Source of the DNA: an uncultured virus (IMG/VR IMGVR_UViG_3300032087_004917)
Taxonomy: Duplodnaviria > Heunggongvirae > Uroviricota > Caudoviricetes
Virus record (IMG/VR): IMGVR_UViG_3300032087_004917
DNA length: 64,000 bases
Direction: 5' to 3' (one strand)
Notes under the pieces: generated by a model
Databases searched by the model: none
The model's input: the letters and a program-made list of their open reading frames with translations, nothing else
What the model was told of the DNA's origin: nothing
Made by a program: the position numbers and the translations under genes
Part shown: positions 12,500-47,395 of the stretch, in pieces
Layout of the letters: every line of letters starts with the position of its first letter
Position numbering within the stretch: position 1 is the first letter of the stretch

Positions 12500-12507
12500 T
12501 ATTTAGG
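12500..12507 (-). promoter_or_regulatory. late promoter CCTAAATA
   Basis: TAAATA core overlapping the tonB stop codon. Confidence 0.65.
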
Positions 12508-14736: not shown

Positions 14737-14763
14737 GTATTCACCTCCAAATACCAATTACTT

Positions 14764-15642: not shown

Positions 15643-15643
15643 T

Positions 15644-30889: not shown

Positions 30890-31350
30890 TCGACACCTGT
30901 GCTTCCGAAACCACCTTGTCTATTTGTTTTTTCTTTTGGTGCTTCATCAATTTCAGTAAAGTCGGTGGAAAGGTTTTTCACAAGTTCACACTGGGCAACT
31001 CTTTCACCGTCCCGAATGTGAAAGATTTTATCCGTATTGTTGACCATTGGCACAAAAACTTCTTCGACGTAATCAGAGTCGATGATGCCCTCGGAGACAG
31101 ACAAGCCAATCCCTTTTTTAGCAGCCATTCCAGATCGCGTGTGAATACGAACAGAATAACCATGGGGGATGTCCATGATCAATCCTGTGGGAACAAGCAC
31201 TCGCTCTCTTGGATTCAATTTTAGTGGTTCATCAACGCAGGCATACAGATCGTAGCAAGCCGATCCCGGTGTCGCTTGATGAGGAAGTTTTGCTTTTTCA
31301 AAAACTTTAAAACACCCAACTTTTTGGGGAAATCTAATCGCTGTGTTCAT
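30886..31350 (-). CDS. dut: trimeric dUTPase
   Basis: SACYDL, RSG, GIIDSDY, AQ, RQGGFGSTG. Confidence 0.95.
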   Translation of the reverse strand: MNTAIRFPQKVGCFKVFEKAKLPHQATPGSACYDLYACVDEPLKLNPRERVLVPTGLIMDIPHGYSVRIHTRSGMAAKKGIGLSVSEGIIDSDYVEEVFVPMVNNTDKIFHIRDGERVAQCELVKNLSTDFTEIDEAPKEKTNRQGGFGSTGVE

Positions 31351-31364
31351 AATAAAAATAATCC

Positions 31365-31589
31365 TTAAACTTGAAGAGTTTCTTTTGTGTCAGGACTCTT
31401 CTGAATAATTATAGTCTGTGGTTCCTCTAAGTAAACTGTAATCTTTGAGTGATTTGATTTTTGTATTGTTAGATTTTCTTGATCACCACTCACCACGACA
31501 TCAACAGGATCTTCTATCTCCAAAACATTGTTTGAGTTTAGTCCTGTGATCGTGGGATCAACTGGAGTGTCCACACTCAACAAATTCAT
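31365..31589 (-). CDS. hypothetical protein (virion-associated?)
   Basis: ATGA overlap with the upstream gene. Confidence 0.55.
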   Translation of the reverse strand: MNLLSVDTPVDPTITGLNSNNVLEIEDPVDVVVSGDQENLTIQKSNHSKITVYLEEPQTIIIQKSPDTKETLQV

Positions 31590-32044
31590 CGCGTCACATT
31601 TTCTCTTGCTTGGAAACGACCTTCGATCAACCTCGTAACCGTATCACCCGTGATCAATTCCAAATCATAAAAGTTTCTACCAGACGGAAGATTCGCAGAT
31701 GTCACAGGATCAAATTGAATAAAAATACCACCCGATGTTCCGGTCGCACCTGTAGAGGATGCGTTCAGTTTGATGTCACCTGTGCCTCCAACGCCAGAGC
31801 CGATTGTAAACTCTCCGGTGGAACCACCCCCAGTCACTCCGCCACTATGAACCACTCCACTGACTCCGTTCATGGTCGCACCAGTAATAAAAAGGGCAAC
31901 GCCAGAGTCGTTTGGACTGCGACGAACTTGCATCCTCGCAGTGTAGTTGTTGAGGTCAATCACCGATCCAGATGAATCTTTATACAAAGCAAAAAGTTTA
32001 AAAGTTGTGCCTTTATCGTGACTGATAGTGTATTCGGTAGCCAT
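31586..32044 (-). CDS. BppU-like / virion accessory protein
   Basis: GTTF..IDL..YTARMQVR..YDLEL..VTRLIEG..VTR pattern; late promoter upstream. Confidence 0.6.
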   Translation of the reverse strand: MATEYTISHDKGTTFKLFALYKDSSGSVIDLNNYTARMQVRRSPNDSGVALFITGATMNGVSGVVHSGGVTGGGSTGEFTIGSGVGGTGDIKLNASSTGATGTSGGIFIQFDPVTSANLPSGRNFYDLELITGDTVTRLIEGRFQARENVTR

Positions 32045-32059
32045 GTGATTCTCCTACCC

Positions 32060-32067
32060 TATTTAGG
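32060..32067 (-). promoter_or_regulatory. late promoter CCTAAATA
   Basis: TAAATA core, then AGGAG SD and ATG32044. Confidence 0.65.
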
Positions 32068-33226
32068 AAACTGAAACAAACTCAAAGTCTTCGTTTTGAA
32101 TCGCACCGAGATTCATACTGCCTGCTCCGGCTTTCTTGTAAAGTGCAGAGTCTCTGCGAATCCGATAGTCTTGGTTTGCATAATCTACAAAATCTGTTGT
32201 TGCAACTGCGGTGACTGTAAAAAGATTTTCGTATTCATCAAGGTTCTGAAAGTTTCCAGATGTTGCATCGCCAATACCAATCTGTGAACCGAGCAGTCTA
32301 TCATCATCGTTTGCATTCGCAGTAACGGCAAAGCCACCAACATCGTAAATAATATTATTTTCCACCAACACACCACCTTGAGTTTGAGCAGCGGCATCAG
32401 AGTCAATACCGTTTCCACCCATACGAGTGATTGTGTTACCGAAGAATGTTCCGTTTCTACCCTCTGATGTTGACAAGTCAGCGATGCCGTTGCCGTGTAG
32501 ATTGTCAATCACGCAGTTTATAATGATTGGTGAAATGGTATCGCACTTGACACCGTTTCCGTTTCCACTACCCGATGTTCCTGATCCGTAGAGTCGGCAG
32601 TTGATGAGCGTGCTGTAATGTGTTCCACCATTATTGACCATATTATCTAACTTAGTTCCACCTGCGACAAACTCACACATTACACATTTTGCACCAAAGT
32701 TGGAGTGAACCCGTGCGTTGTTGTTGCTCGCACTTGCATTTGCACCAAACTTCATAAACAATCCGTGATGAAAGTTGCGAAGAGATTCTGCAAAGGTAGA
32801 GTTGAGAACACCACCCTGATTGTATGATGTGCTTGTGTTTTCTAAATACAAACATTTGTAAACCGTGGATGTTCCAGCAGCATCAAAAATCGTGCCGTTA
32901 TTCGTTCGGATGATTTTTGGATAGTCAGTCGTGTCAAGATGTGACTGTGAATCATCGGACCACTTTGGCTCAAGAAGATTACCGCTTGCATCTGCACCGA
33001 CCCAGAAGTGTGGATTGTCTGCGTTCGGGTCGGTGGATGACGGAACCAACTCTGCGGTTACGGTGTAGGTTCCGGCAAGAAAAATCCAACGAGTGTTTTG
33101 TCTTGTCTCTGCAATGATATCGGATGTCCACGAAGTTCCCGTGATTGCTGCTTTTGCGTTTGCAGCAGATGACCCGTCCTGTAAGCCTGCTCCCGATGGT
33201 GAATAGTAAACGTCAGTGAGTGCCAT
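32063..33226 (-). CDS. right-handed beta-helix protein (tail fibre/spike-like)
   Basis: YYSPSGAG..DGSS..NA start; repeating NG-I/NN-I rungs; DYRI..S...AG...GA end motif. Confidence 0.7.
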   Translation of the reverse strand: MALTDVYYSPSGAGLQDGSSAANAKAAITGTSWTSDIIAETRQNTRWIFLAGTYTVTAELVPSSTDPNADNPHFWVGADASGNLLEPKWSDDSQSHLDTTDYPKIIRTNNGTIFDAAGTSTVYKCLYLENTSTSYNQGGVLNSTFAESLRNFHHGLFMKFGANASASNNNARVHSNFGAKCVMCEFVAGGTKLDNMVNNGGTHYSTLINCRLYGSGTSGSGNGNGVKCDTISPIIINCVIDNLHGNGIADLSTSEGRNGTFFGNTITRMGGNGIDSDAAAQTQGGVLVENNIIYDVGGFAVTANANDDDRLLGSQIGIGDATSGNFQNLDEYENLFTVTAVATTDFVDYANQDYRIRRDSALYKKAGAGSMNLGAIQNEDFEFVSVS

Positions 33227-33229
33227 TCA

Positions 33230-34327
33230 TTACCTCGTTTCGTAAGTTACAAACATTTGTGCCTGTGTAGAGCCAGAGGCGTTACTAATAACATCAAAGA
33301 ACAAAAACCCACCAGCCGTGACCGATGTGTTATTGAGTAGGGTGGATGATCCTGTAGTGCCTTCAATTCCTAGCGTTCCACCAGTCAACGAACTTGTGGC
33401 TGGATTCCCAAAATCAGGTCCGGCGATAATTGCACCTGCCGTGAATCCACCAGAGCCATTCACCTTCACATCAATATTTGTAAGTGTTGCGTTATAGGGG
33501 AACCTATGCAATGAATCTGTTTTTTGTCCGGTTGCAATAGCCGACGAAGCAGAGATTGTAAATGTTGCAACACCATTCGCCACACCCAAGACATCACCAG
33601 TGGCTCCGTTGAAAGATTTTACGGTAAATTTACTAAGTTTTATAAACTCCATAGGAGTATCACCTGAAAATACCGTAAGATTGCTTTCATTGACAAGAAG
33701 GGAGGGGTCCGTAGAATCGCCCCCTGCACCGCCAGCCGCCAATATTTCGGTTGGGAATGAATAAGTTAGTGGTTCAAACGGTCCAGAACCAAAGCCCGAT
33801 CCGGGCTTTCCTATCTTAAATGTATTTGTCGTGCTAATGTTGGCAAGACCACCATGTGAAGTAATTCCACCTGACGCAGAGATACCAGCAACTTGTATTG
33901 TGAGATCAGTTGTGCTGACTGCACCAGTAAGACCGTTGAAAGAGTTTACACCTTCAATATTACCAGTGGCTCCATTGAAAGTATTTACACCCTCAACCGC
34001 CCCGGTTGCTCCATTGAAAGATGCAACAAACTCATCAACGGGACCAGTTGCCCCTGTCGCACCAACGGCTCCAGTAGCACCAGTGGCTCCCGTAGATCCA
34101 GTCGATCCTGTCGATCCAGTCGATCCGGTGGCTCCTGTGTCACCAGTAGATCCTGTAGATCCTGTATCACCAGTGGAGCCTGTCGTGCCTGTTGCACCAG
34201 TCAATCCAAGCGGCAAAAGATTAAAGACTGTGCCATTCCACTCCCAAACCTTCGTGCCTACACCAAAGGTGGAGCCGACTGTCGGAGTTGATGCAGTTGT
34301 GCCAGAAGTAGGAAACTTAAAGGACAT
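33230..34327 (-). CDS. collagen-like (G-x-T) fibre protein
   Basis: FP..PTVG..WEWNG N-terminus, ~19 Gly-X-Y (mostly G-x-T) triplets, four VxxFNGxTG repeats. Confidence 0.85.
34037..34207 (-). repeat. 9-bp tandem coding repeat (G-x-T triplets)
   Basis: ccagtcgat/cctgtcgat/ccagtagat/cctgtagat units on the + strand. Confidence 0.85.
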
Positions 34328-35625
34328 TACCTAACCTTTTTCTTTTTGCCTCTCCTTTTATTTATCTTAACTTCTGCCTCTTTTTGTTTCCTAATTTCAG
34401 CCCTACGCATTTTATCTTCGATTTCAGCCTTCGCTTTCAAGGCTTCGTTTTGCTGATGTTTTTGCTGCTGCTCCTCAAGCCAATTTGCATAGTGTCGGAA
34501 ATTGTTTACGATTCTCTCTTCTTGTTCTTTTGCAAATTTCTTTTCAGAAAGGAGTTTGTTGCTAGCCTCAAGACCAGCCATCATGTCTCCAGCATAAAAA
34601 GCCACAGAGGCAAGTTCGTCCCAACACATCCATCCGTAGATATCAGCGTTCAAGAAAAGAATATCTTGATGGGGATACGGAATCTTCACAGCCTGTTGTG
34701 CAAACATATACGCCAACCTTGGGTTTCCATTTTCTCTATGGATTCTGGCAAGTTGATACAAAGGTTCAGATCTATGTGGTCGCATGTTCCACGCTTGGAG
34801 GAAGTGGTCTTGAGCCTGCTCCCACGGCTTATTGAGAAGACATTTGCAGATTGCCACTCGATAGACTGAATACCAAACTTCTTCTTCCCATCCACCCATC
34901 TCAGCACGCTTTTGATACCACTCTAGTGCTTTTTCAAATTCCTGTGCGTCAAACCAAGATTGAGCGGCGTAAAAAGTGTAACGATGATTTTCGGGTTCGT
35001 AGTTTTCGTTTTCTGGATTTGTCAAACAATCAATCAAAGTTTCGGCATCTTTTGAATATTTTGCCTTTTGATCGTCCTTGAATTCTTTGGTTCGATTACC
35101 CATCGTTCTGGCTTCGATATGATAATCGCCACCAATTTTATCGAGTGTAGCCTCACCCAAGCCTTGATCTCGTTTGCCTACGCAGTCTGCGTATTCGTGA
35201 ATAACACCTTTGTATTCCCAGCCAAGACCCGTTTTAAACATTTGATGTCTCCACCAGTTGAAGTCGCCTCGGTGAATCCAAAGTGCATACGCATCATGCT
35301 CTCCAAAATTTTCTGGGTATTTAAAATTACCCTCGACTATATCATCAGCGTCGATGACCCAAGCGTAGTCTGCCTTGCCATCACAGTTTCTTAGAGACTG
35401 AGTTCTTGACTTACCAAAACCTTGCCATGGAATATCGTGTACCTCACCCGGAATACCTTTCTCTTCAAAGAATTCCTTGATGATTTCTTTTGTTTTGTCG
35501 GTTGATCCGGTGTCAGAGATGTCGTACCGATCAATATACGGAGCCATTGACTCAAGGCATTCACGAATGATATGCTCTTCATCTTTAACAATCATACACA
35601 AAGTTACAGTAGGTCTTTTACTCAT
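34327..35625 (-). CDS. GT2 glycosyltransferase with TPR repeats (protein O-glycosyltransferase type)
   Basis: [27 protein letters not shown] helices (FYAAQS..A..WY.KR, P.R.E). Confidence 0.9.
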
Positions 35626-35635
35626 AATATTCCTT

Positions 35636-36376
35636 TCAAAGTGACCACAAGTTGTCGCTTAGGTATTTATCTAAAACAATTCGGTCTTTATGACACTCAT
35701 AGATTTTTTGAAAATGTTTGATTTGTGGAATTTGTTTGTGTTGCTCATTTTCATTTAGACCGTATCTTTTGAATTTCTCTGCCGATCCGCCTTTTGTGTA
35801 CCAACTTTCGTGATAAGATCTTACCCACTTTCCCATGTCATAAAATGTCATGCCCGTCATAAAGATTTCTTTGACCTCGTACATTAACATAAGAAGAACA
35901 CCGTTGTACCCTGTATTTGGTAGACACGTTTCCTCGCCGCCCTGACTTGCTATGAACTTCCTAAGACCATTTTCTCCCTCAAAAACTTCTGATGAAACTT
36001 GATGATATGGAACACCAACATCCTTCAAAAAATCACCAGTTTTTTCGTAGAGATCTCCGGGTGTTTGTGCGCAAATCAAACACTCACATTTTTTCATATC
36101 ATAGTAATCGTCTTCTGTGAACGAGTTCATGTCGTGATCGTTATAACTATGCACGATTATATCAGTTCTGCTACCGTAGTCTTTTGCGACATCATCTCCA
36201 CGAAGAATGTCACCAGTTCGAACCACCAAATCATAAGAGTCAATTTTTTCCCCGTAACCAGTGTCAACATTTTGGGGTGCAGGACCGACGTACGCGATTC
36301 TTTTATCTTTCAGAAGACTAGCAAGGTTTTCGTCTTTAACATAGTTTTCTCCAAGTGGTTTTTCAATCCAATCCAT
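35636..36376 (-). CDS. GT29 sialyltransferase-like protein
   Basis: Sialylmotif L-like IAYVGPA..GEKIDSYDLVVR..DYGSRTD; S-like PNTG..MTGMTFY; C-terminal His. Confidence 0.75.
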   Translation of the reverse strand: MDWIEKPLGENYVKDENLASLLKDKRIAYVGPAPQNVDTGYGEKIDSYDLVVRTGDILRGDDVAKDYGSRTDIIVHSYNDHDMNSFTEDDYYDMKKCECLICAQTPGDLYEKTGDFLKDVGVPYHQVSSEVFEGENGLRKFIASQGGEETCLPNTGYNGVLLMLMYEVKEIFMTGMTFYDMGKWVRSYHESWYTKGGSAEKFKRYGLNENEQHKQIPQIKHFQKIYECHKDRIVLDKYLSDNLWSL

Positions 36377-37427
36377 GTTTAATTAGTTCCTTCCACTCAG
36401 TGATGAGATTTTTTACGGTGTCATCTTTAGTCATGTTTTTAACGAACATAACCCCTGCCCTTTCGCAGAAGATAAATCTGTAATCAGTTTTAGTGTTCTT
36501 TTTGTCCTTTTTCAGATAGGTAATCATATCATCAATGCTTAAATTTTCAATACAAAAAGTTTTATAAATTTTAGACATAATCTTATTATACTTTTTGTAA
36601 TCATCCTCACTCATAAAGCCCTGAGTGTATGAGATATAATTAGCACAGTCCATGCCATATGCCACTGCGATCCCATGAGGAATTGCGTTGTTCAACGCAC
36701 CCTCTATCGCATGACCAAATGAGTGACCATAATTCAAAATGATTCTTTCTCCCGTGTCAAACTCATCATTCTCAATGAATTTTTCTTTGATTGATAAGCA
36801 TCTTGAGATCAACTTTAAGATTGGTGTCTCACCCGAAAAGCATTTTTTAAATAAAGACAAACTATCATCACCAGCGATCATCACATAATGAAGTAGTTCA
36901 CCAAACCCAGACATTCTTTGTTCTTCTGACAAGGTGTCAAGGAATGTAACATCAATATAAACGGCACTCGGTGGATAAAAATTACCTAAAGTATTTTTGT
37001 ATCCCGCAAAGTTAATAGATGTTTTTGATCCAATGCAACTATCCCCTTGGGACAATAAGGTTGTGGGGATAAATACCCATTCAATCCCACGGAACAAAAT
37101 CGAGGAAACAAAAGAGGTGACATCTTGTGTGACACCACCACCCATGGCAACAAGTTTTGTTCGCCTTGTTACACCGAGATCCAAAAGTTTTTCAATAAGT
37201 TCTTTTGCACCATCATATGACTTTTGCCATTCAGACGCGGATAACTTTACAAAATTGACTGCATCAAAAAAGTCTTTTCGTGAGTCGTAAAGATAATCAT
37301 CAATTACAAAAATGACCTCTTCATCTCGATACTTCTCAATGACTTTTTTATGATCACAAAAATTAACAAAGTAATCTTTGATTGAAGAGTTGATTTCAAT
37401 ATCACTCACAGAGAAATCCTCCATCAA
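36363..37427 (-). CDS. AroB/3-dehydroquinate synthase-like sugar-phosphate cyclase
   Basis: GGGVTQD, RGI..IPTTLLSQGDSCIGSKTSIN, LNYGHSFGHAIE, HGIAV, DKK. Confidence 0.9.
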   Translation of the reverse strand: MMEDFSVSDIEINSSIKDYFVNFCDHKKVIEKYRDEEVIFVIDDYLYDSRKDFFDAVNFVKLSASEWQKSYDGAKELIEKLLDLGVTRRTKLVAMGGGVTQDVTSFVSSILFRGIEWVFIPTTLLSQGDSCIGSKTSINFAGYKNTLGNFYPPSAVYIDVTFLDTLSEEQRMSGFGELLHYVMIAGDDSLSLFKKCFSGETPILKLISRCLSIKEKFIENDEFDTGERIILNYGHSFGHAIEGALNNAIPHGIAVAYGMDCANYISYTQGFMSEDDYKKYNKIMSKIYKTFCIENLSIDDMITYLKKDKKNTKTDYRFIFCERAGVMFVKNMTKDDTVKNLITEWKELIKHGLD

Positions 37428-38106
37428 CGACTATGTTCTGTCCGGTGATGTAGGTATTTTGATCGCCACACAAGAACATGACAGCGTTTGCCATCTCCTC
37501 AGTAGCACCAAGTCTACCCATTGGCACTCTACCTTCAACTTCACAAATGCCCTCTTCACCTAAAACTTTTTGGGTCAAGTCTGTTTTTGTAAATCCGGGT
37601 GAAACTGCATTCACCAAAACACCATGCTTCGCTAGTTCAAGAGAAAGAGTTTTTGTCATGCCGATAAGACAAGACTTTGACATGGTATAAAGAAGTCTAT
37701 GCTCTCTTGAAACGACCCCGTAGATAGACGATATGTTTACGATTCGTCCATAGCCTCTTTGACGCATATTTTTCGCAACAATTTGACTAATTTTGAATGG
37801 TGCTTTGACATTCACCGACATGAGTGTTTCATAGTCCTCATCGGTAAATTCATCAAACGGTTTTACGATGTTAATGCCTGCGTTGTTGATGCAAATGTCA
37901 AAGTCCATGTCACGAATTTTTTCATAAAAACGCTCACAAGAATTTTTGTTTGTAAAATCAACCTGAAAAAACTCATTCGACTCACCTGTTGTGCAAGTGC
38001 CAAAAACGTAAGCACCTTTACGTTTCATCATATCGAAAATCTTTTTACCGATGCCTCTTGATGCACCTGTTACCAAGACCGCTTTTCCATTCAAGTTCAT
38101 CGCCAC
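37402..38106 (-). CDS. short-chain dehydrogenase/reductase
   Basis: TGASRGIG, NNAG, YTMSK, NAVSPG, ITGQNIVVDGG. Confidence 0.93.
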   Translation of the reverse strand: MAMNLNGKAVLVTGASRGIGKKIFDMMKRKGAYVFGTCTTGESNEFFQVDFTNKNSCERFYEKIRDMDFDICINNAGINIVKPFDEFTDEDYETLMSVNVKAPFKISQIVAKNMRQRGYGRIVNISSIYGVVSREHRLLYTMSKSCLIGMTKTLSLELAKHGVLVNAVSPGFTKTDLTQKVLGEEGICEVEGRVPMGRLGATEEMANAVMFLCGDQNTYITGQNIVVDGGFLCE

Positions 38107-38109
38107 CTC

Positions 38110-38421
38110 TTACACACAATTTTCAAAGTAGTTGTCAGCGTTATCGGCTTTATCATCAATATAGACATCTGCGGAAAACTTCACTCCGACTCGGAGATCG
38201 TGATAATGAACGCCCCACGCTTCTAATTGTTTCAATGTGATATCAGTCCAATCTTTACCCCGTGTCGCACCGCTACCTCTAGCGGTATCAATGATAATAG
38301 TATGACCAGCATCATACAAATCATTCACATGTTTGATTCTTTTCACAAAAGGCTTTGCGTTTTCGTAATCCAAATCTTGTTGGGAACACAAAGTCCCATC
38401 GAGGTCAAAACAATAAATCAC
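38110..38421 (-). CDS. small HAD phosphatase (capsule-biosynthesis type)
   Basis: FDLDGTL, TARG, YIDDK. Confidence 0.88.
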   Translation of the reverse strand: MIYCFDLDGTLCSQQDLDYENAKPFVKRIKHVNDLYDAGHTIIIDTARGSGATRGKDWTDITLKQLEAWGVHYHDLRVGVKFSADVYIDDKADNADNYFENCV

Positions 38422-38984
38422 GCAGTGCCATACTTTCTCACAAGTTCAGCCTTGATAGTTGGACACTTGTGACCAAGATTGTAGACCATTTCGTAGAAAC
38501 ACATGACAGAAAGAATTTCGTGCGTATGGAAGTAATCAGTCTCAAAGTTAACCTCTGGGATGTTTGGATCGAGGCAGTTTGATTGTGATCCCGAAATCAA
38601 ACCTGCGTTCCAATTATGTCTTTCATTTGCCCAATGCAAAGCAGAGATGACATTCTTAGAGTTTCCCGATCCAGAAAATCCTACCACCATACCCTTTTCG
38701 TTGGGATTAACATAGTGTTCAAGCCAATTGGTAAAGATGTTTTCATAACCAAAATCGTTTGCGATTGAGGTGAGAAGTGATGGGCTGTCAAGACAATAAA
38801 CTCGTTTGTCTGTCAATCTTGTAATATCAGCGGCGGCGTGACTTGCCACTGCCATGTTGCCACCATTACCAAGGACATACACGGCTTCTGCATCTTTGAT
38901 GCCCTGAATAATTTTAGACCACTCTTTAGTAGAAATACCTTTCTTAAATTTTTCTTCAAGATTTTCAAATGGTGCATTTTTCAT
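38418..38984 (-). CDS. SIS-domain sugar-phosphate isomerase (GmhA-like)
   Basis: GNGG..ASH, TSIANDFGY, SGSGNSKNV. Confidence 0.88.
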   Translation of the reverse strand: MKNAPFENLEEKFKKGISTKEWSKIIQGIKDAEAVYVLGNGGNMAVASHAAADITRLTDKRVYCLDSPSLLTSIANDFGYENIFTNWLEHYVNPNEKGMVVGFSGSGNSKNVISALHWANERHNWNAGLISGSQSNCLDPNIPEVNFETDYFHTHEILSVMCFYEMVYNLGHKCPTIKAELVRKYGTA

Positions 38985-40147
38985 TTCATGTTCCCTTTCG
39001 TTTGTTGCATGGAAATATTTAGAATTTTCAAAAAGGTGTTGATTTCATTTCTATCAACGGCAAGATTTGGTCTAACCCTCAATGTCCTTTCGCCAGCCAT
39101 ATTACAGATGGCTCCGTTGTCTTTAAGTCGTTGTAGTAGTTTACCTCTAAACTCATTACTTTCAACATCAAAAGCGATCATTAGTCCTTTTCCTCTTGCA
39201 TTTTCTACGCCATCAATTGATCGAAGTTCTCCGATCAAAATTTCACCCATGTCCTTTGCATTTTCCAAGAGGTTTCCTCTTCTATACGCTTTCATAATGT
39301 AAGTGCCGCGAAGCATATCAACTAAGTCACCGTCAAAAGTTACACAAAGTCTGTGATCCAAGCCAGATGAATATTTTTCTGATGTCATCACACCAGATAC
39401 CTGTGTTTTTTTACCAAAGGCAACGATGTCAGGTTTAATATCAAAGTGTTCAAAACACCAAACTTTTCCAGTTGTCCCGAATCCTGTTTGCACCTCATCA
39501 TAAATCACAGGGACATCAAATTCCTTTGACACCTTACTAACGTCCTGCAAAAAATCTTTTGGCAAATGATTATCACCGAAGGTTGATTGAATAGGCTCAA
39601 CCAAGACACCAGCGATGTCACCTCTTGACAACTCTGCCTTGAGTTCTTCAATGGTGCTTACCTTTGCCCAATCAAAGTCAGGAAATCCTGATAATCTTTC
39701 TGCGACAATACCAAAATGACTGGTCGCAAAATTTCCATATCCAGCGGTTCCGTGAAAACTATTATCAATAGCAATCATACGTTGTTTTTTGGTGTGATAC
39801 ATCGCAAGTTTACATGCACTCTCAACGGCTAAGGAGCCTGTGCAAGTAAAGTGATACTTATCAAACAATCCCACCCCCGCAAGGTCATGAAAGTGTTGAC
39901 AGAAATTTTGTCGAACATCACTATCAAACTCACAGTTTGTTGTTTTGACTGATGCCAAGTATTTCAGTTGTTTGTAAAAAGACTCATCGAACACTGGGTG
40001 GTTATATCCGAGTGGAAGAGAGGAATACATTCCAAAAAAATCTAGAATGTTTTTATTTGTGTTTTTATCAAACAAAAAAGAACCATGACTTTTTTCAAAG
40101 TCTAGGCAAATGTTCCAGAATGTCGCATCATTAAATTTTGTAGACAT
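38981..40147 (-). CDS. class III PLP aminotransferase (lysine 6-aminotransferase-like)
   Basis: LGYNHP, SFHG, EPIQ, DEVQTGFG, FGKKTQ, RGKGLM. Confidence 0.9.
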   Translation of the reverse strand: MSTKFNDATFWNICLDFEKSHGSFLFDKNTNKNILDFFGMYSSLPLGYNHPVFDESFYKQLKYLASVKTTNCEFDSDVRQNFCQHFHDLAGVGLFDKYHFTCTGSLAVESACKLAMYHTKKQRMIAIDNSFHGTAGYGNFATSHFGIVAERLSGFPDFDWAKVSTIEELKAELSRGDIAGVLVEPIQSTFGDNHLPKDFLQDVSKVSKEFDVPVIYDEVQTGFGTTGKVWCFEHFDIKPDIVAFGKKTQVSGVMTSEKYSSGLDHRLCVTFDGDLVDMLRGTYIMKAYRRGNLLENAKDMGEILIGELRSIDGVENARGKGLMIAFDVESNEFRGKLLQRLKDNGAICNMAGERTLRVRPNLAVDRNEINTFLKILNISMQQTKGNMK

Positions 40148-41264
40148 GTGCTACATCCGCTCTACTCACTGCAAGACGGGCGGCAGGTTTATCGCCAATA
40201 CAAGTGATTTTGTGCCACTTGTTTTTTGGAATGTAAACAATGTCGCCTTGCTTCACCGTGTGGTCAACACCTTCGATTTCAAAGTTCCATTTACCCTTTA
40301 GAATATACCACCATTCATTCCAAGAGTGATGGTAGTGCCTTCTGTTTCCCTCTCCGGGTTTCTGATGGATGACACAACAACTGTTACTTTCACTATTCAC
40401 AATTCTCTTGATCCAAGATGAATCATCACCCTCTCTTTCAAGAAGTTCAGGAATGTTTGTAATCAGATTATTTTCATCGTCATAGTTTTCATTTTTCACA
40501 CCATCATCTCTAATGATTGTAGGGACATCTCTTTCTTCGTGGATGCCGCTATGAAGTCTTGGGTCATAGTATTCTGGATCAACATAAGACTGCATGTGCC
40601 GACTACCCATGATTTGCTCCGCGAGGGAAAAGTCATCTACGGTGTCAATGTCAACTGTTGCAAATCCAGAAAGTGTGTAAAACCCTGTTTTCCCACTACC
40701 ACCGTGATATCCAGAGTCATACTCGGAAATATTTTCTTTAAACTTTTCAGACTTCCATGCCATCAAGCCACACGCATATGCCTTTACGGGGGTCAGTGAT
40801 TGTGATGGCGGTGTTTTTTCTTTTTGCTTGAAGTTTAGTGGTTTATTTTCATACATGCACTCGATCTGCACATCGGTGGTTGAAATCAGCGTGTCATAAT
40901 CACCGTCGTTCATCATTTCAAAAAATTCAATAATGTGTGCTGCCTCGATAAATGGTGACGTTGCCAAAAATTGATACAAAGTATCACACTTTACGTTATT
41001 GATAAAGTCAAGAACAAAGTCATCATTCGTGGCTTCGTCTGTTGAAAGAGCGTCAGGTCTTTTGTAAAACTTGATACCATAGTCATCAGCGATAGTTTTC
41101 ATGATGTCTGACTCTGAGTTCAAATAGATCTCATCAAAAACGCCAGACCGCTTAACGGCATCGATGATGTAACCGATCAATGGTTTGCCATTGATCAATC
41201 TAAGATTTTTATTGTGGACTCTTTTACTTCCAAGCCTCGCTGGGATCATCGCAACATTTTTCAT
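40131..41264 (-). CDS. CMP-ulosonate (NeuA/KdsB-like) cytidylyltransferase fused to a cupin
   Basis: IPARLGSKRVHNKN, TSPF, DIDT; C-terminal HYH..E..H cupin. Confidence 0.88.
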   Translation of the reverse strand: MKNVAMIPARLGSKRVHNKNLRLINGKPLIGYIIDAVKRSGVFDEIYLNSESDIMKTIADDYGIKFYKRPDALSTDEATNDDFVLDFINNVKCDTLYQFLATSPFIEAAHIIEFFEMMNDGDYDTLISTTDVQIECMYENKPLNFKQKEKTPPSQSLTPVKAYACGLMAWKSEKFKENISEYDSGYHGGSGKTGFYTLSGFATVDIDTVDDFSLAEQIMGSRHMQSYVDPEYYDPRLHSGIHEERDVPTIIRDDGVKNENYDDENNLITNIPELLEREGDDSSWIKRIVNSESNSCCVIHQKPGEGNRRHYHHSWNEWWYILKGKWNFEIEGVDHTVKQGDIVYIPKNKWHKITCIGDKPAARLAVSRADVAHVYKI

Positions 41265-42520
41265 AAAATATTCTCCAAAGAATTTATAAATCTATTTCGT
41301 TTTTCATAATCAGTCGTATATCTCAACCAGACTGACATTATAGTTGGAACAAACATATTGTCAACATCACAGTAACCAACAGGATGCCACATGTGAAGTG
41401 CCTCTGCCTTTTCATCATGACAATATAATGCACCGTTTCCAGCATGATGAACATTTTGTTGTTTTAGATTTGGATTATTTTTTAGTTCAAGTTTACTCCA
41501 AAAAATTGAATCTTCTGGTGCGTAGCCATAAACAATTTGTGGATCAAACCCACCAACCGAAAGCATGTTCTCTCTTCTAATCGCAAGAGATCCACCGGGG
41601 GCTTTTAGATCAGCCATTGGTGGAATATGACTACCACCCTGTGTTTTGGGAACATAATCCAACAAATCCACCTGTTCCCCCTTTGAGTATTGTGTCACAA
41701 GTTTTGTGGTTTTTTTCTCCGACATGTAAATCACACGCCCACCGTAAAATGGTTGATACCAAGTTGGGCTATTTTGGTTTTCGATTCCACTAATGAACTC
41801 CTCGGTCACAAGAAGGTCAACATCGTGATTCACTTGCCATTCAAAATTCATCTCACGAAGAACGTGATTGAAGCATAGTGATTTATTCATGAACATGTCA
41901 GTGTTGTAAATCGGGTGGCGTTTCGGTGTTCTATACGCAGAGAAATTTTTGAAACCTAACTTTTTACTTAATGAAACGGTGCTTTCGTAAATCGGATCGT
42001 CCGAGTTTTCTTGAATATAAAAAGTCAGATTCCAGTCGGGTCTATCTTTGAGTAATCTGTATAAATTTACCAAAAGAGTATTAGCGTGATTTAATCTAAT
42101 CTTTTGATTGTCATTTTCCCTGATAGGAACAACAATATTATATTTTCCAGTGACGTTGGTGTTGTAACGATCCGCTTTGATCAAATCATAATTTATTGGT
42201 TTACGACGAAGGCTAAGAACTCTATCAATGTAATTTCTATCATTGACTTCAATGTGTTTGAAAAAAGATAGAGGATCAATGTTTCCCCATAAGATCCCGG
42301 TCAATACACCGAACATCGAAAACTCACGGTCGCCTTTTTCTAATAGCCTACCTTTTGATTTTGAGTACCACCTTTGAGAATCACCAATAATTGGCGCACT
42401 AGAAAGAAAGCGTTGCAAATCCTCTTGATTTGCATTCATAAACATATGGTGCATGAAAGTTTTTAAATGTTCATGTCCCTGCCTGTTTAGAGTCTCAATC
42501 TCATTGAGATTTTGCGTCAT
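41261..42520 (-). CDS. GT-A glycosyltransferase (GT7/GT2 galactosyltransferase-like)
   Basis: IVVPIR, NKSLCFN, HDVDL, GGFD..GYAPED, HMWH. Confidence 0.75.
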   Translation of the reverse strand: MTQNLNEIETLNRQGHEHLKTFMHHMFMNANQEDLQRFLSSAPIIGDSQRWYSKSKGRLLEKGDREFSMFGVLTGILWGNIDPLSFFKHIEVNDRNYIDRVLSLRRKPINYDLIKADRYNTNVTGKYNIVVPIRENDNQKIRLNHANTLLVNLYRLLKDRPDWNLTFYIQENSDDPIYESTVSLSKKLGFKNFSAYRTPKRHPIYNTDMFMNKSLCFNHVLREMNFEWQVNHDVDLLVTEEFISGIENQNSPTWYQPFYGGRVIYMSEKKTTKLVTQYSKGEQVDLLDYVPKTQGGSHIPPMADLKAPGGSLAIRRENMLSVGGFDPQIVYGYAPEDSIFWSKLELKNNPNLKQQNVHHAGNGALYCHDEKAEALHMWHPVGYCDVDNMFVPTIMSVWLRYTTDYEKRNRFINSLENIL

Positions 42521-43412
42521 TCACTGCCTCACTGATCCAATCTTCAAATTTCACCTTTGGCTCCCAACCCAAAAACCTTTTGATTTTTTCATTGTTTGCC
42601 CGTGTAAATCGTGCCTCGCCCAAACGTGGCTCGATCATTATTGTATTATCAGAAATCATTTTTGCAAGTTCGTTTACCGAAAAATTTGTTCCAGTCCCGA
42701 CATTGAAAACTTGTCCGTATTTCTCTAGTTTTACGGTTGACGCAAGGATGTTTGCACTTACCACATCAGAGACATGAGTAAAGTCTCTTCTTTGTTCACC
42801 ATCGGGGACGATAGTAAGTGGCTCTCCTTTTTTCATTTGTTCTAAAAACAAACCGACTACAGGAGCATACTGTCCACGAAGTGGTTGACGCTCTCCATAA
42901 ACGTTGAAGTATCTGAAAATCACAGTTTCAAGACCAAACAAATCAGAATACATTTTACACAACTTTTCGCCGGAGACTTTTGAAACGGAGTAAGGATTTA
43001 GACAATCATCGGGTTGTGTTTCAACTTGGGGGACTTCGTTGATTAATCCATATGCTGATGAGGTGGATGAATACACAACTCGTCTAACACCCATATCTCT
43101 TGCTGCCTGTAAAACTGAGCAGGTTCCATATGAATTGGTTTTCACGGCAAGTAAAGGATTTTTGATCGCTGGTTGTATTCTTGCCTCGGCAGCACAATGA
43201 AAAACGGTATCGACACCTTTAAACAAATGTTTAATTTTGTCATGATCGCAAATGTCGTGCTTGTAATACTTTGCTTTATCATTGTAGTAAAAATAATCAT
43301 GAGCATCAGATGATTCATTGTCGATAACAACAACACCATGTCCGGCACTCACTAGTCTGTCAACGATGTTTGACCCAATAAAACCCGCACCACCAGTAAC
43401 CAAGTATTTCAT
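42501..43412 (-). CDS. NAD-dependent epimerase (UDP-Glc/GlcNAc 4-epimerase type)
   Basis: TGGAGFIGS, PYSVSK, RYFNVYG, RDFTHV. Confidence 0.92.
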   Translation of the reverse strand: MKYLVTGGAGFIGSNIVDRLVSAGHGVVVIDNESSDAHDYFYYNDKAKYYKHDICDHDKIKHLFKGVDTVFHCAAEARIQPAIKNPLLAVKTNSYGTCSVLQAARDMGVRRVVYSSTSSAYGLINEVPQVETQPDDCLNPYSVSKVSGEKLCKMYSDLFGLETVIFRYFNVYGERQPLRGQYAPVVGLFLEQMKKGEPLTIVPDGEQRRDFTHVSDVVSANILASTVKLEKYGQVFNVGTGTNFSVNELAKMISDNTIMIEPRLGEARFTRANNEKIKRFLGWEPKVKFEDWISEAVNDAKSQ

Positions 43413-44212
43413 TGATTCACCTCCTCAAGAGGATATGGAAGGCAGTCTAGTTTAGAGTATCTTTTACTTTGCCTAACTCTGTCGGCAGTTTGCTCTTGTC
43501 TGACCACACCTTTTTGCTCTGTTTGTAAATGATCAACTTTGTCCTCTGCCAAAATATTGGTTCTGTTGTAAACGTACATTACGTCTGGAACGTATTCAAA
43601 TCTATCGCCTGCCATTTCAAGCATCGGGAACATAAAAGCAAAGTCTCCAGCCATGCTATAGTATTCACCATCAGTATCTCTCAAGTCATTGTCATCGATG
43701 GACAAAAACAATTCTCTTCTAAACGTTCTAAGGTGTGATGCAAGCCATCGATATGATCTAAAATCATTACTTTCCACGATTTCGTCAGGGTATCTGTGAA
43801 AGAATCCTTTTTCGAAAACTCGATATCTGTCCTCACCGTGATACTCACAATATGTCCCGTAAGACATCCACACATCTTCCGTGTAAACCTCATTGAGTCT
43901 TGTAAGTGTATCTGCATCGGGGAGCCAGTCATCAAAATCAAGTGTAACAACAATAGAGTTTGGCTTTGAATTTTTTACACCAAACAAAGTGTTTTCAACT
44001 TGAAATGATCTTTTGGGGCTTCTAAACAACTTGAAATTATCGAGATGCTCGTATTCTTGAAGAGCCTCATATGTTCCATCATCAGTCAGTGCATCAACGG
44101 CAACAATTTCAAAATTTTTGTAATTTTGTGCAAGAACAGATTCAACGGCTCTATTGATCCACTCTTTTGAATTATAACCAACCATCACAATAGAAAAGAA
44201 ATTTTCACTCAC
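43409..44212 (-). CDS. GT2 glycosyltransferase
   Basis: YN..WI..AVESV..QNY, TDDGT, LDFDDW; likely GTG start. Confidence 0.85.
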   Translation of the reverse strand: MSENFFSIVMVGYNSKEWINRAVESVLAQNYKNFEIVAVDALTDDGTYEALQEYEHLDNFKLFRSPKRSFQVENTLFGVKNSKPNSIVVTLDFDDWLPDADTLTRLNEVYTEDVWMSYGTYCEYHGEDRYRVFEKGFFHRYPDEIVESNDFRSYRWLASHLRTFRRELFLSIDDNDLRDTDGEYYSMAGDFAFMFPMLEMAGDRFEYVPDVMYVYNRTNILAEDKVDHLQTEQKGVVRQEQTADRVRQSKRYSKLDCLPYPLEEVNQ

Positions 44213-45056
44213 TCTCAAACTGCCTTTCATTTTCAATCATTTCATGCACAACACGATGTGGCATGTTGTTGTATTTCATAGCACGATCAAAGTTGTCTTT
44301 TACATGAGGTAGCATTTCTTGGTAGAGATCCTCATTTAGACTATTTAGGATGTCATCAAGAATGTCCCCCTCTTTCAGAAAAAGCATACCATCCGTGTTA
44401 AACTTGTCGCCGATGCAAGGATCGCCAACATAGATTGGAACTGTTCCCGTTCTATAGCAATCCAAAATCTTTTCAGTGTGCCAGCCGGGAATCACTGCAT
44501 TTTCAATCACGATACAAAATCTATGTGAAGCAAGAGCGTCCACTTTGTTGTCGATCTCATTGTATCCGCGACCAAACACATGAAGAGTATCTGTGCCTTT
44601 ATAGTGTTCTGCAATTTGAACTCTTGTTTCCTGCACGGGAGTAAATGCTTTGTTTGATGTTATGAAACACACACTATCTGTTTTATCATAAATTTTTGAA
44701 TCTTCATCACCCACCCAAGACGGAAATGGAGGATCTGTTATGATGGCATTATCAAACTCTGCAAATCTTTTATCCCATGTATAAATTCGTTTAGATTTCA
44801 ATGCATTTTGTTTGATGTGATTAATTAATACACTTTCAAAGTTGACATTAGCATTCTGATCAAACATCATTTCACCATAGTGATTAAGCACCGGCATACT
44901 TTCAGTGAGCCACGCGACAGAATTTTCTGCCTCGGGATTTTCGTTATTCAATAAGATAGATGCGTCGATTAGGATATTACGATCCATTGGATCGTCAGCA
45001 TATTTTTCAAAAATAGGCAAAAAAGATTGATCGAATCTATTGAATGCTTTAATCAT
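44205..45056 (-). CDS. GT10-like fucosyltransferase
   Basis: RFCIVIEN....WHTEKILDC...GTVPIY.G alpha-1,3-FucT-like motif. Confidence 0.8.
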   Translation of the reverse strand: MIKAFNRFDQSFLPIFEKYADDPMDRNILIDASILLNNENPEAENSVAWLTESMPVLNHYGEMMFDQNANVNFESVLINHIKQNALKSKRIYTWDKRFAEFDNAIITDPPFPSWVGDEDSKIYDKTDSVCFITSNKAFTPVQETRVQIAEHYKGTDTLHVFGRGYNEIDNKVDALASHRFCIVIENAVIPGWHTEKILDCYRTGTVPIYVGDPCIGDKFNTDGMLFLKEGDILDDILNSLNEDLYQEMLPHVKDNFDRAMKYNNMPHRVVHEMIENERQFESE

Positions 45057-45820
45057 TTTCTAATCCATCCTTCACAGTATACGTCCTCCCACTCAGTCGG
45101 TCCTTGCTCTCCGGTGAACCATTGCTTTGGTGCAATAGTCTCTCCTTGCCCCAACCATGATCCCCACCAACTGAAACTACTATTGGCGATTACATGAGCA
45201 TTACACATTGTCATCACACACATATCAACATATTCAGATTCACTCTCCACAAAAACAGCGTCTTGAACATTTGAAAACTCATCTTTACACCAATCGATAT
45301 CATCAGAGATAAAAACTGGCGTGTAACCCTCAAAATGATCAAGGGAATTTTTATAATACTCAGCCCCCAAATTAGTATGAATGTGAGAAAGATTAACGTA
45401 GTCGCCTCTCCTTACATGGACAGAAACACAAACATTTTGTGGGAGAATAGCAGCAGCCTTTTCTCTTATTTCTTTCTTGAAAAAGAATTCTTGTCTTATT
45501 TCATTTTCAATGTGCTTAAAGTATTTTTCAGATTGATAGTAACCATGAAGATTTACATTATCGGGAAGATCATAATCAACGGGGATTTCTTCAAGAGTTG
45601 TTTCATGAAGCCCACCCTTTGTGTCCTCACATGATAATTCAAAACAGTCTAAAAGTTGTAGTCTTTCTTTATGAATTGAAAAACCACCGTAAACATTTGA
45701 GTGATTAAAACAAATACCATATTGATAGTCATGTTTTTTAGCGAATCCCATGAGGGCTGCATACTGAAACATTTGGTTGCCCAACCTACCCCAATATCCT
45801 AAAAGCGGAAAGGTAATCAA
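45053..45820 (-). CDS. GT11 alpha-1,2-fucosyltransferase (second copy)
   Basis: GRLGNQMFQYA, GYYQSEKYF, HVRRGDY, ANSSFSWWG. Confidence 0.93.
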   Translation of the reverse strand: MITFPLLGYWGRLGNQMFQYAALMGFAKKHDYQYGICFNHSNVYGGFSIHKERLQLLDCFELSCEDTKGGLHETTLEEIPVDYDLPDNVNLHGYYQSEKYFKHIENEIRQEFFFKKEIREKAAAILPQNVCVSVHVRRGDYVNLSHIHTNLGAEYYKNSLDHFEGYTPVFISDDIDWCKDEFSNVQDAVFVESESEYVDMCVMTMCNAHVIANSSFSWWGSWLGQGETIAPKQWFTGEQGPTEWEDVYCEGWIRK

Positions 45821-46482
45821 TTAATCGTTCCTAGACTAAATGGTTTTTTTGTTCTAAGTGGAGTTTTTGTAAGATGCTCCCACTTGTTTACGGTGTTTTT
45901 TGAATCGGCTTGATAAAAGAATGGAATCTTTGGGGCGTATACCACGCAATGTGGTTGTAGATCATACGCAACGCCCACATCAAACGGTCGATTAATTTCG
46001 TATATCCATCTCTTACCCACATCGACCATTCCCTGAGCAAACTTTTCGGAAAGGTGTAGAATGGCGTGTGTGGAAAAAACTCTTTGAATTTTTGTCCAAC
46101 CGTTTCTTAAATCGATAGCCTCATAGTTTCCGTCACCGTGTGACGTTCCTAAATAAACCGCGTCGGCATCATCGGGGATTGGTAGATTATCTTGAAAGAC
46201 ACCAGCGTTGATTTCAACATCATCCTCAAGAATCAGGACTGGCTTACCATCTTTAAGAATAGTTTCCTCTAGAATTTTGAAGTGAGACTCTGCACAATTA
46301 CGGTAGTGTTCCTCGCCACGGATAACACCCTCATGAGGCTCGATACCTGTAACGGCTGAAAATCTCTGATGGTCGGTAAACTCTTTTGCTTCAAAAAGTT
46401 TGACCATTTCTTTTGCTTTTTGTTCGTCTTTATCGACGTTAATCCAACGAGTTCTTACATTACGAATATCCAGTTGCATCAC
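45817..46482 (-). CDS. GT25-like glycosyltransferase
   Basis: WIN..., RFSA, CAESH, LILEDD, THAI. Confidence 0.75.
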   Translation of the reverse strand: MMQLDIRNVRTRWINVDKDEQKAKEMVKLFEAKEFTDHQRFSAVTGIEPHEGVIRGEEHYRNCAESHFKILEETILKDGKPVLILEDDVEINAGVFQDNLPIPDDADAVYLGTSHGDGNYEAIDLRNGWTKIQRVFSTHAILHLSEKFAQGMVDVGKRWIYEINRPFDVGVAYDLQPHCVVYAPKIPFFYQADSKNTVNKWEHLTKTPLRTKKPFSLGTIN

Positions 46483-46489
46483 AAACCTT

Positions 46490-46927
46490 TCACGCCAAGT
46501 TTCGAATCTCCCTCAACTCTTGGAAATTCTTATTTTTAGTTCCACCATCATACTCCCACGCATAGCCCTCTGCAATCATTTTTTCATTAATCGATACAGT
46601 TTCATCGCCGATGTAAAGCCAGCCGAGAAGTCTACCGTATTTACCAAAGCCACCATCAAGTTCAGTTCGAATCACCAAGTCATCCTCACCAGAGATAGCA
46701 GAGTCCAGTTGATCTTTGAGCCAGTTTGTGGCATCAATACCCAGTTTCTTTTCTTCAAGATCTCTAGTTCTTTTTTCAGGTGTGTCTACGCCAGCGATAC
46801 GAACACGCTCCTTTTTATACAAGTCAAACCCCAAGTCAATCACAACATCAATCGTGTCACCATCAATAACACGGGCTACCTCTGTGACTCTGAAATTGTA
46901 ACACGATTTTCTGCTCGGTGGTTTCAT
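46490..46927 (-). CDS. thermonuclease (SNase-like)
   Basis: VIDGDT, RVRIAGVDTPE, GKYGRLLG, GYA. Confidence 0.9.
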   Translation of the reverse strand: MKPPSRKSCYNFRVTEVARVIDGDTIDVVIDLGFDLYKKERVRIAGVDTPEKRTRDLEEKKLGIDATNWLKDQLDSAISGEDDLVIRTELDGGFGKYGRLLGWLYIGDETVSINEKMIAEGYAWEYDGGTKNKNFQELREIRNLA

Positions 46928-47343: not shown

Positions 47344-47387
47344 TTCAACTCCATAATACTAATGACAGATCACATCGCTGTCACAAG

Positions 47388-47395
47388 TATTTAGG
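47388..47395 (-). promoter_or_regulatory. late promoter CCTAAATA upstream of regA
   Basis: TAAATA core overlapping the gp62 stop codon. Confidence 0.6.

Follow-up and report, generated by a model that had tools for sequence, protein, structure and literature searches.

Within a 64,000-nucleotide stretch of DNA from an uncultured virus (IMG/VR record IMGVR_UViG_3300032087_004917; hereafter the window), judged by its Pfam and PHROGs gene content to derive from a marine T4-like myovirus, seven minus-strand open reading frames (ORFs) together fill positions 35636–41264. Counted from the first gene to be transcribed, they encode a cytidine monophosphate (CMP)-ulosonate-type cytidylyltransferase fused to a cupin, a class-III aminotransferase, a SIS-domain isomerase, a small HAD phosphatase, a short-chain dehydrogenase/reductase (SDR), a paralogue of the dehydroquinate synthase (DHQS) AroB and a transferase with a sialyltransferase fold. 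The coordinates and family assignments of these genes in the initial annotation, which was made from the sequence alone, hold. Comparison with other viral and bacterial loci shows that the cassette is a real, conserved module, which we regard as a variant of the pathways supplying CMP-ulosonic-acid donors; it is recurrent, not unique to this phage, and variants of it are found in many bacterial phyla.

Genes and products of the cassette

Six of the seven genes overlap a neighbour by 4–26 nucleotides (nt), and a gap of 3 nt separates the HAD and SDR genes. A sigma-70 consensus promoter-like site on the minus strand (41337..41364; TTGACA-16 nt-TATAAT, 12/12 match) lies upstream of the cassette, 73 nt from its first gene and within the 3' end of the preceding ORF (41261–42520). 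It is the sole 12/12 match among 38 promoter-like sites at 31000–48000, a total that is not above that of shuffled sequences (mean 41.1). No match to TATAAATA, the late-promoter motif of T4, occurs in the window. The initial annotation had treated the genes as one pathway unit, and this agrees both with their overlapping or near-abutting arrangement on one strand and with their recurrence as a set elsewhere; the recurrence of the partners around 134 AroB-like loci shows that these genes have not come together by chance.

The first gene (40131..41264) encodes the cytidylyltransferase-cupin fusion. Its N-terminal domain (residues 1–230) matches CTP_transf_3 (PF02348) with 82.9 bits, over the cut-off of 22.6, and scores below the equivalog cut-off of the NCBIfam PseF model TIGR03584 (93.5 bits versus 205.7). 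The PDB folds nearest to the structural model of this domain are the CMP-Kdn, CMP-Neu5Ac and CMP-Pse synthetases (1e-18 to 1e-15); KdsB follows with 1e-13, and the Foldseek match to CMP-Kdn synthetase has an E-value of 1.9e-18 and a TM-score of 0.77–0.79 on the target. The fused cupin (residues about 285–377; Cupin_2, 63.3 bits) is of the metal type, with H310, H312, E317 and H351 invariant among the aligned homologues, and its structural neighbours are the Mn cupins Sll1358 and the C-terminal domain of oxalate decarboxylase (4e-12). The cupin was also considered as the counterpart of YhcH (DUF386), whose gene adjoins that of the cytidylyltransferase in the bacterial cassettes; hhalign comparison of the two alignments gave a probability of 0.08%, detecting no homology, so the link between them is positional only.

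The aminotransferase (38981..40147) is a class-III, omega-type enzyme (Aminotran_3, 210.8 bits). Among NCBIfam models it scores highest on that of the L-lysine 6-transaminase family (260.8 bits versus a cut-off of 520.8), and its top PDB match is lysine epsilon-aminotransferase (8.8e-47), an omega-type enzyme that acts on a substrate with a distant carboxylate. The SIS-domain protein (38418..38984) just exceeds the SIS_2 cut-off (28.3 bits, cut-off 27) and is best described as a GmhA-like sugar-phosphate isomerase, scoring far below the GmhA equivalog cut-off of TIGR00441 (55.2 bits versus 209). The next gene (38110..38421) encodes a minimal HAD phosphatase of 103 amino acids, here called HAD1, which was recognised by motifs and weak family models: DLDGT (motif I) at residues 6–10, DD at residues 89–90 within YIDDK near the C-terminus, and a weak match to the NCBIfam EcbF-BcbF capsule phosphatase model (E 1e-6). 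The SDR (37402..38106) is FabG-like (adh_short_C2, 166 bits).

The product of the last gene (35636..36376) falls below the Pfam cut-off for GT29 (PF00777; E 0.0077, 16.1 bits versus 23), and the GT29-like call of the initial annotation is accordingly weak by sequence. It is confirmed by the fold: an AlphaFold model built with 23 relatives (mean predicted local distance difference test, pLDDT, 84.8) has 30 matches in the PDB at E<=0.001, nearly all of them GT29 or GT42 sialyltransferases, and the top Foldseek matches are ST8SiaIII (7.7e-7), ST3Gal, ST6GalNAc2, ST6Gal1, CstII and CstI, with TM-scores of 0.46–0.57. The model thus confirms a sialyltransferase fold, while the donor specificity is a prediction.

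The AroB paralogue (36363..37427) has the two domains of DHQS, DHQ_synthase (PF01761, 117.5 bits) and DHQS_C (PF24621, 104.3 bits). Its best NCBIfam model is TIGR04425, named 'AroB-related putative sugar phosphate phospholyase (cyclizing)', with 367 bits, below the cut-off of 400; on the aroB model TIGR01357 it scores 260 bits against a cut-off of 305, so that TIGR04425 is ahead by 107 bits. TIGR04425 is also the best model for 16 of 16 AroB-like homologues, 12 of which (42–49% identity) exceed its cut-off, the four closest (49–71%) lying below it. All five bacterial genomes with a paralogue carry a true aroB elsewhere, which scores 331–373 bits on the aroB model versus 238–275 for the paralogues. 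The claim that the cyclase is not an ordinary aroB is borne out by the sub-cut-off aroB score, by TIGR04425 being the best model and by the separate true aroB in these five genomes. A tblastn search of GenBank phages with the AroB-like protein found only 16 records, at 28–34% identity, several of them annotated as aroB or dehydroquinate synthase, and no close homologue in cultured phages.

Residues R113, D129, K135, N145, E177, K214, R228, N232, H235, H239, H251 and K309/K310 are identical in 115 of 115 rows of the family alignment and in five of five true AroB proteins, and their spacing matches that of the active-site residues of Aspergillus nidulans DHQS, K214 and R228 presumably being the carboxylate binders. 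Because the conserved catalytic set, these presumed carboxylate binders included, is that of true AroB, the substrate of the enzyme most likely has the shape of 3-deoxy-D-arabino-heptulosonate 7-phosphate (DAHP). In phmmer searches against the PDB, DHQS was matched with 2.8e-44, a chain that we take to be 2-deoxy-scyllo-inosose synthase (DOIS) with 2.4e-34, 4p53, presumably 2-epi-5-epi-valiolone synthase (EEVS), with 7e-23 and 5tpr, presumably desmethyl-4-deoxygadusol synthase (DDGS), with 3.3e-16; the NCBIfam matches include no EEVS- or DOIS-type models. The family varies at position 180, a site of substrate contact that presumably corresponds to DHQS Lys197: lysine is found in five of five true AroB proteins and in 62 of 115 family members, and histidine in the other 53, this phage included.

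Recurrence and exchange of cassette genes

Neighbouring genes within 8 kb were recorded for 134 AroB-like loci, a count that includes near-duplicates and comprises 54 loci of viruses and 80 of bacteria or archaea. An SDR gene is present in 117 of them, mostly starting no more than about 1 kb upstream on the same strand, CTP_transf_3 in 72, SIS in 65, the aminotransferase in 31 (29 of the 54 viral loci) and a GT29-like gene in 27 (26 of the 54). The six larger cassette genes recur jointly, in varying order, in about 30 viral contigs, and among the loci annotated the AroB-like gene never stands beside shikimate genes.

The neighbourhood follows the residue at position 180. Around the His-180 subtype, a cytidylyltransferase gene was found in 47 of 53 cases, SIS in 43, a class-III aminotransferase in 26 and a GT29-like gene in 24, versus 18, 16, 1 and 0 of the 62 cases of the Lys-180 subtype; a thiamine diphosphate (ThDP) enzyme neighbours 1/53 and 37/62, respectively, and an FGGY kinase 0/53 and 12/62. 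The Lys-to-His change at position 180 is therefore tied to CMP-type cassettes. The bacterial cassettes of the His subtype are without the aminotransferase and the cupin, and they contain a GFO-type oxidoreductase, a 2-hydroxyacid dehydrogenase, an MptE/Maf-like transferase and YhcH, a member of the sialate-anomerase family, as extra genes; YhcH genes were found in 12 bacterial loci, 11 of which are of the His subtype.

A second set of comparisons comprised 72 viral loci centred on the cytidylyltransferase-cupin gene, two of which are this phage itself. The AroB-like gene and the SDR are present in 34 of these loci. A second small phosphatase, HAD2, which is marked by DFDGV and DDKA motifs and in some loci forms a fusion with the SIS domain, is present in 23, none of which has the AroB-like gene, and 13 loci, some of them truncated, have neither a HAD nor an AroB-like gene. 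HAD1 is present in six loci: together with the AroB-like gene in two (this phage and L175), alone in L178 and L168, and together with HAD2 in L200 and L201. When 46 distinct cytidylyltransferase-cupin proteins were arranged in a tree, nine changes of the AroB state were required, and well-supported branches force at least eight of these.

The exchange is clearest among the nearest relatives. L178 has the cytidylyltransferase, aminotransferase, SIS and HAD1 genes; L138 has the cytidylyltransferase, aminotransferase, SIS, SDR and AroB-like genes; the phage under study has all of these and the GT29-like gene. Identity between the nearest loci and this phage is 68–70% for the cytidylyltransferase, 56–57% for the aminotransferase and 69% for HAD1, and the SIS proteins of L138, L178 and L168 are 74–76% identical to that of this phage. 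The HAD1 orthologues of L178 and L168 (67–69% identity), both in loci without AroB-like and SDR genes, conserve the DLDGT and DD motifs. Because the nearest relatives exchange one for the other, the AroB-like enzyme with its SDR and the phosphatase appear to share a position in the pathway, although HAD1 is not strictly redundant with that pair. Two AroB-less cassettes encode SIS and the small HAD2 as a single protein (L163:17057-18034 and L198:11758-12738, about 325 amino acids), and these fusions tie the isomerase and the phosphatase to one pathway.

Other arrangements were observed around the same families. In loci L119–L131, L134 and L135, some of which are labelled as giant-virus metagenome-assembled genomes (MAGs), a Lys-180 AroB-like protein is accompanied by a ThDP enzyme and weak HpcH-like proteins, and this is a different cassette. 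Locus L036, from a MAG labelled Thaumarchaeota, has a viral-type cassette with split transketolase genes, and the AroB-like proteins of L036 and the viral locus L112 are nearly identical (branch lengths 0.12–0.14); L036 may come from a virus of the archaeal host or be a viral contig that was wrongly placed in the MAG. In loci of the L086/L087, L180 and L163 types, sulfotransferases, FkbM-/NanM-type methyltransferases, MptE/CstI-like transferases and second cytidylyltransferases surround the core, which suggests many decorated versions of the sugar.

Proposed pathway and alternatives

The initial annotation had noted that the window contains no NeuB, KdsA or shikimate gene. Searches with Pfam (29+26 ORFs) and PHROGs (42 ORFs) likewise found no phosphoenolpyruvate (PEP)-condensing synthase, aldolase or shikimate gene in the 64 kb, and a six-frame tblastn search of the window with a DAHP-synthase-like protein, NeuB, two HpcH aldolases, transketolase subunits and others gave nothing better than E 0.07; a synthase gene may lie elsewhere in the phage genome. 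The sole PEP-condensing synthase within a sister cassette is encoded at L144:7957-8817 (also in L145), where it is followed by the aminotransferase, the cytidylyltransferase-cupin, SIS, HAD2 and a clear GT29 protein (63.6 bits) that belongs to another cluster than the transferase of this phage. [quoted passage not shown] Split transketolase subunits, which can supply erythrose-4-phosphate or sedoheptulose-7-phosphate, are encoded in about 20 viral loci, and HpcH-type aldolases in nine AroB-less viral loci. The DAHP-synthase-like sister synthase, the transketolases and the DAHP-type active site of the AroB-like enzyme point to a seven-carbon 3-deoxy-2-keto acid phosphate as the putative substrate. 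Two entry metabolites had been put forward in the initial annotation, host DAHP and sedoheptulose-7-phosphate; a DAHP-like host compound is the most plausible, and the DHQS-type residues and the PDB similarity make sedoheptulose-7-phosphate unlikely.

We propose, with a probability of roughly 0.4, that the cassette builds, CMP-activates and transfers a sialic-acid-like acidic sugar, the predicted steps being elimination and reduction of a DAHP-like phosphate, amination, formation of the CMP donor and transfer. The seven genes would form one transcription unit, working like a CMP-Kdo or CMP-sialic-acid donor pathway. The starting compound would be a DAHP-shaped 3-deoxy-2-keto acid sugar phosphate with seven carbons, a C1 carboxylate and a C7 phosphate, provided here by the DAHP synthase of the host and in one sister phage by the phage's own DAHP-synthase-like enzyme. 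In the sister cassettes the phosphate would be hydrolysed off by the small HAD phosphatase; here it would be removed by the AroB-like enzyme through NAD+- and metal-dependent oxidation, beta-elimination and re-reduction, as in DHQS, and the SDR would then reduce the keto product to a terminal-deoxy acid sugar. The class-III aminotransferase would install an amino group, the cytidylyltransferase would form the CMP donor, and the fused metal cupin might perform an extra step. Finally, the sialyltransferase-fold enzyme would pass the sugar to the glycan made by the surrounding glycosyltransferase island, the putative acceptor glycan being carried either by the surface of the host or by a protein of the virion.

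The proposed route has counterparts in several known systems. The statement that no described pathway has this gene set agrees with a literature search limited to titles and abstract openings, which found none. Like the CMP-Kdo pathway (KdsD, KdsA, KdsC, KdsB), the HAD-type sister cassettes combine an isomerase, a keto-acid phosphate, a HAD phosphatase and a CTP_transf_3 protein. Unlike that pathway, the phage window has no KdsA-type synthase, the sister synthase is DAHP-synthase-like and the SIS protein GmhA-like; the cassette adds the aminotransferase, the cupin and the AroB-like enzyme with its SDR, and a sialyltransferase-fold enzyme replaces the Kdo transferase. The folds of the cytidylyltransferase and the transferase are nearest to those of the CMP-nonulosonic acid systems (NeuA/PseF/LegF with GT29/GT42 or Maf/MptE-like transferases), and the bacterial versions of the cassette likewise use MptE-like proteins and YhcH. 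However, the cassette has neither a NeuB-type synthase nor a feed from a nucleotide-sugar 4,6-dehydratase, its aminotransferase is of class III and not of the DegT type, and its sugar probably has seven carbons, not nine.

A further parallel is the synthesis of the amino sugar Kdo8N in Shewanella, where the oxidase KdnB, a member of the iron-dependent alcohol dehydrogenase (Fe-ADH)/DHQS superfamily, and the aminotransferase KdnA act before CMP activation. The two systems would have in common the oxidation of a keto-acid sugar by a DHQS-superfamily enzyme, transamination and then CMP activation; the phage enzyme, however, is not an Fe-ADH but a close paralogue of AroB whose phosphate-binding residues are intact, it is coupled to an SDR, and the cassette aminotransferase is also kept where the AroB-like enzyme is absent. 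With AroB and TIGR04425 proteins the phage enzyme shares the fold, both domains and the conserved catalytic, metal-binding and phosphate-binding residues, and it differs from them in lying below both cut-offs, in its histidine at position 180, in its non-shikimate context and in its coupling to an SDR, usually together with a cytidylyltransferase. The sugar-phosphate cyclases DOIS, EEVS, DDGS and aminodehydroquinate (aminoDHQ) synthase belong to the same superfamily and share the NAD+- and metal-dependent oxidation-elimination mechanism; with the exception of aminoDHQ synthase, they act on neutral sugar phosphates, whereas the phage enzyme keeps the presumed carboxylate binders.

Several points weigh against the proposed synthesis of a terminal-deoxy acid sugar. 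This phage and L175 carry HAD1 together with the AroB-like gene, so the two cannot simply be alternatives here. The synthase of L144/L145 lies below both DAHP-synthase cut-offs (258 versus 335 and 231 versus 268 bits) and has KPCT at the position where DAHP synthases presumably carry the phosphate-binding motif KPRT/S, which makes its aldehyde substrate uncertain; it may use an unusual aldehyde. The HAD-type cassettes have no identified step that makes the carbonyl for the aminotransferase, and the DAHP route leaves the GmhA-like SIS protein unexplained. The roles and numbering given for the DHQS residues are provisional. The AroB-family tree, in which the phage protein groups with the viral L083–L085 proteins next to a Pelagibacteraceae member (SH-like support 95–99), is unrooted and informs only on where the phage protein stands locally, and literature searches found no publication on the cassette. 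Lastly, the enol-pyranose intermediate of DHQS cyclises spontaneously, so the full DHQS residue set acting on DAHP should yield a carbocycle and not a deoxy sugar.

This last point leads to a reading, close to the idea in the initial annotation, in which the DAHP-like substrate is cyclised to a dehydroquinate-type ring, the ring ketone is reduced by the SDR or aminated by the aminotransferase, and the tertiary C1 hydroxyl beside the carboxylate is esterified; the resulting CMP-activated carba-analogue of an ulosonic acid would be transferred as a pseudo-sugar or serve as a mimic or inhibitor. Besides the self-cyclisation, the retention of the entire DHQS catalytic set and the word 'cyclizing' in the NCBIfam name speak for it, the ring ketone would be a substrate for both the SDR and the aminotransferase, and the host DAHP synthase would suffice, with no further PEP synthase required. 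However, orthologous cytidylyltransferases (45–70% identity) and sialyltransferase-fold enzymes serve HAD-type cassettes, where cyclisation is impossible, and by established glycosyltransferase chemistry a carbocycle has no ring oxygen to stabilise the sialyltransferase-type transition state. The YhcH anomerase-family gene of the bacterial His-subtype cassettes implies an anomeric centre, and the histidine that CMP-type cassettes have in place of lysine at position 180 could change what the reaction yields. That the phage makes such a quinate- or aminoquinate-type mimic of an ulosonic acid is the leading alternative, though a less likely one. An eight-carbon route of the Kdo type, with SIS acting as KdsD, host KdsA producing Kdo-8-P, HAD acting as KdsC and the cytidylyltransferase as KdsB, would leave the aminotransferase to form a Kdo8N-like amino sugar and the AroB-like enzyme with the SDR to form an 8-deoxy variant. 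The logic of isomerase, phosphatase and cytidylyltransferase is that of the Kdo pathway, SIS-HAD fusions are known among the sister cassettes, KdsA is present in every Gram-negative host, and the aminotransferase and dehydrogenase of Shewanella Kdo8N synthesis, the latter from the wider DHQS/Fe-ADH superfamily, offer a precedent. We nonetheless consider this route unlikely, given that the SIS protein is GmhA-like rather than KdsD-like, that the sister synthase scores much higher as a DAHP synthase (258 bits) than as a Kdo-8-P synthase, that the cytidylyltransferase fold is closer to NeuA/PseF than to KdsB and that the AroB-like active site has the DAHP-binding set; moreover, the pyranose ring oxygen of Kdo-8-P would, by the DHQS mechanism, sit on the carbon that needs oxidation for beta-elimination.

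The initial annotation had left the product as either a modified ulosonate or a novel (amino)cyclitol, and the former is favoured. A C7 cyclitol or aminocyclitol derived from sedoheptulose-7-phosphate by an EEVS-, DDGS- or DOIS-like reaction, of the validamycin or mycosporine type, would account for the GmhA-like SIS protein, since sedoheptulose-7-phosphate is the substrate of GmhA, and would fit the split transketolase genes of related loci and the class-III aminotransferases that aminocyclitol pathways include. Such a neutral product is nevertheless very unlikely: similarity in the PDB is much higher to DHQS than to the chains taken to be DOIS, EEVS and DDGS, no EEVS- or DOIS-type NCBIfam model was matched, the presumed carboxylate binders K214 and R228 are invariant and common to true AroB, and a CMP-ulosonate-type cytidylyltransferase with a sialyltransferase fold is ill-suited to a neutral cyclitol. 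The most ordinary explanation, a plain DHQS boosting host aromatic synthesis beside a cytidylyltransferase and a transferase acting on host Kdo or N-acetylneuraminic acid (Neu5Ac), the rest being unrelated, would agree with the full DHQS catalytic set and with the frequency of auxiliary metabolic genes in phages. It is scarcely credible in view of the aroB score, the better fit of TIGR04425, the separate true aroB of the bacterial genomes, the tight linkage, across over 100 loci, to genes for an SDR, a cytidylyltransferase and a SIS protein, the lack of shikimate neighbours among the annotated loci and the lack of a close homologue among cultured phage records, and may be regarded as largely refuted.

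If the proposed acid-sugar route is correct, dehydroquinate synthase, a textbook enzyme of the aromatic pathway, would have been recruited many times into cell-surface sugar synthesis, and the loss of a sugar phosphate by elimination rather than hydrolysis would lead to CMP-activated acid sugars of a new class, or to carbocyclic mimics of such sugars. A carbocycle, if formed, would be the first CMP-linked carba-sugar, giving either a glycosidase-resistant linkage in a glycan or a dead-end mimic with which the infecting phage could block Kdo- or sialyl-type transferases of the host. As HAD and the AroB-like enzyme with its SDR have replaced each other repeatedly, a comparison for resolving the chemistry is ready to hand. 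Given how common it is among marine phages and across many bacterial phyla, the cassette probably shapes phage–host recognition in the ocean.

The glycan-gene island and other parts of the window

The DNA polymerase (24102–26600) and RegA (46924–47343) were recognised with Pfam and PHROGs, as were the other replication genes of the window, UvsX, a gp41-type helicase, a primase and ribonucleotide reductase; clamp loader subunits, a gp45 clamp, gp46/47-type nuclease subunits and a late sigma factor are also encoded. The best relative of the polymerase among GenBank phages, that of Synechococcus phage S-T4, has only 51% identity, and megablast of the cassette region against GenBank phages gave no nucleotide match. 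A 35.5-kb viral-contig fragment (G001) shows 100% identity to the queried 5.6-kb region.

The cassette sits within a glycan-gene island of about 20 kb, with the polymerase on one side and regA on the other; the genes assigned to it by Pfam lie at 26948–46482, 47755–48612 and 51749–52765, and are flanked by the DNA polymerase and clamp genes. Its content includes a GDP-mannose 4,6-dehydratase, a DegT aminotransferase, at least three NAD epimerases/dehydratases, a UDP-glucose-dehydrogenase-like protein of 285 amino acids without a C-terminal domain match, and glycosyltransferases of the GT11 (two), GT10 (one), GT25-like (one) and GT2 (two) families. The island is very large, and the phage probably makes a whole oligosaccharide rather than a single sugar.

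Downstream of the cassette (31586–35625) lie a collagen-repeat, tail-fibre-like protein (33230–34327), a protein of 387 amino acids without assignment and a protein weakly matching tail-fibre assembly proteins; a GT2-TPR protein (34327–35625), with a weak match to SunS-type peptide glycosyltransferases (E 1.8e-5), adjoins the cassette. The virion fibre might be the acceptor of the cassette sugar. On the other side, the product of the ORF at 41261–42520 (419 amino acids) has no family match and shows 27–31% identity to proteins of related viral loci; it is probably another glycosyltransferase, as one of these relatives (L087:3269-4441) weakly matches the N- and C-terminal domains of GT7.

Elsewhere in the window, the segment 12000–18000 has a G+C content of 0.47–0.49 versus about 0.40. 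Encoded there are a protein that ends in a TonB C-terminal domain (12503–13144), the ribonucleotide reductase and two ORFs (13132–14757 and 14875–15729) that have no family match. A fusion protein of 753 amino acids (6500–8761), adjoining a DUF6267 protein (4843–6039), has three parts, a cytidylyltransferase-like N-terminus, an ATP-grasp domain of the RimK type and a domain that is putatively an ATP-dependent zinc protease.

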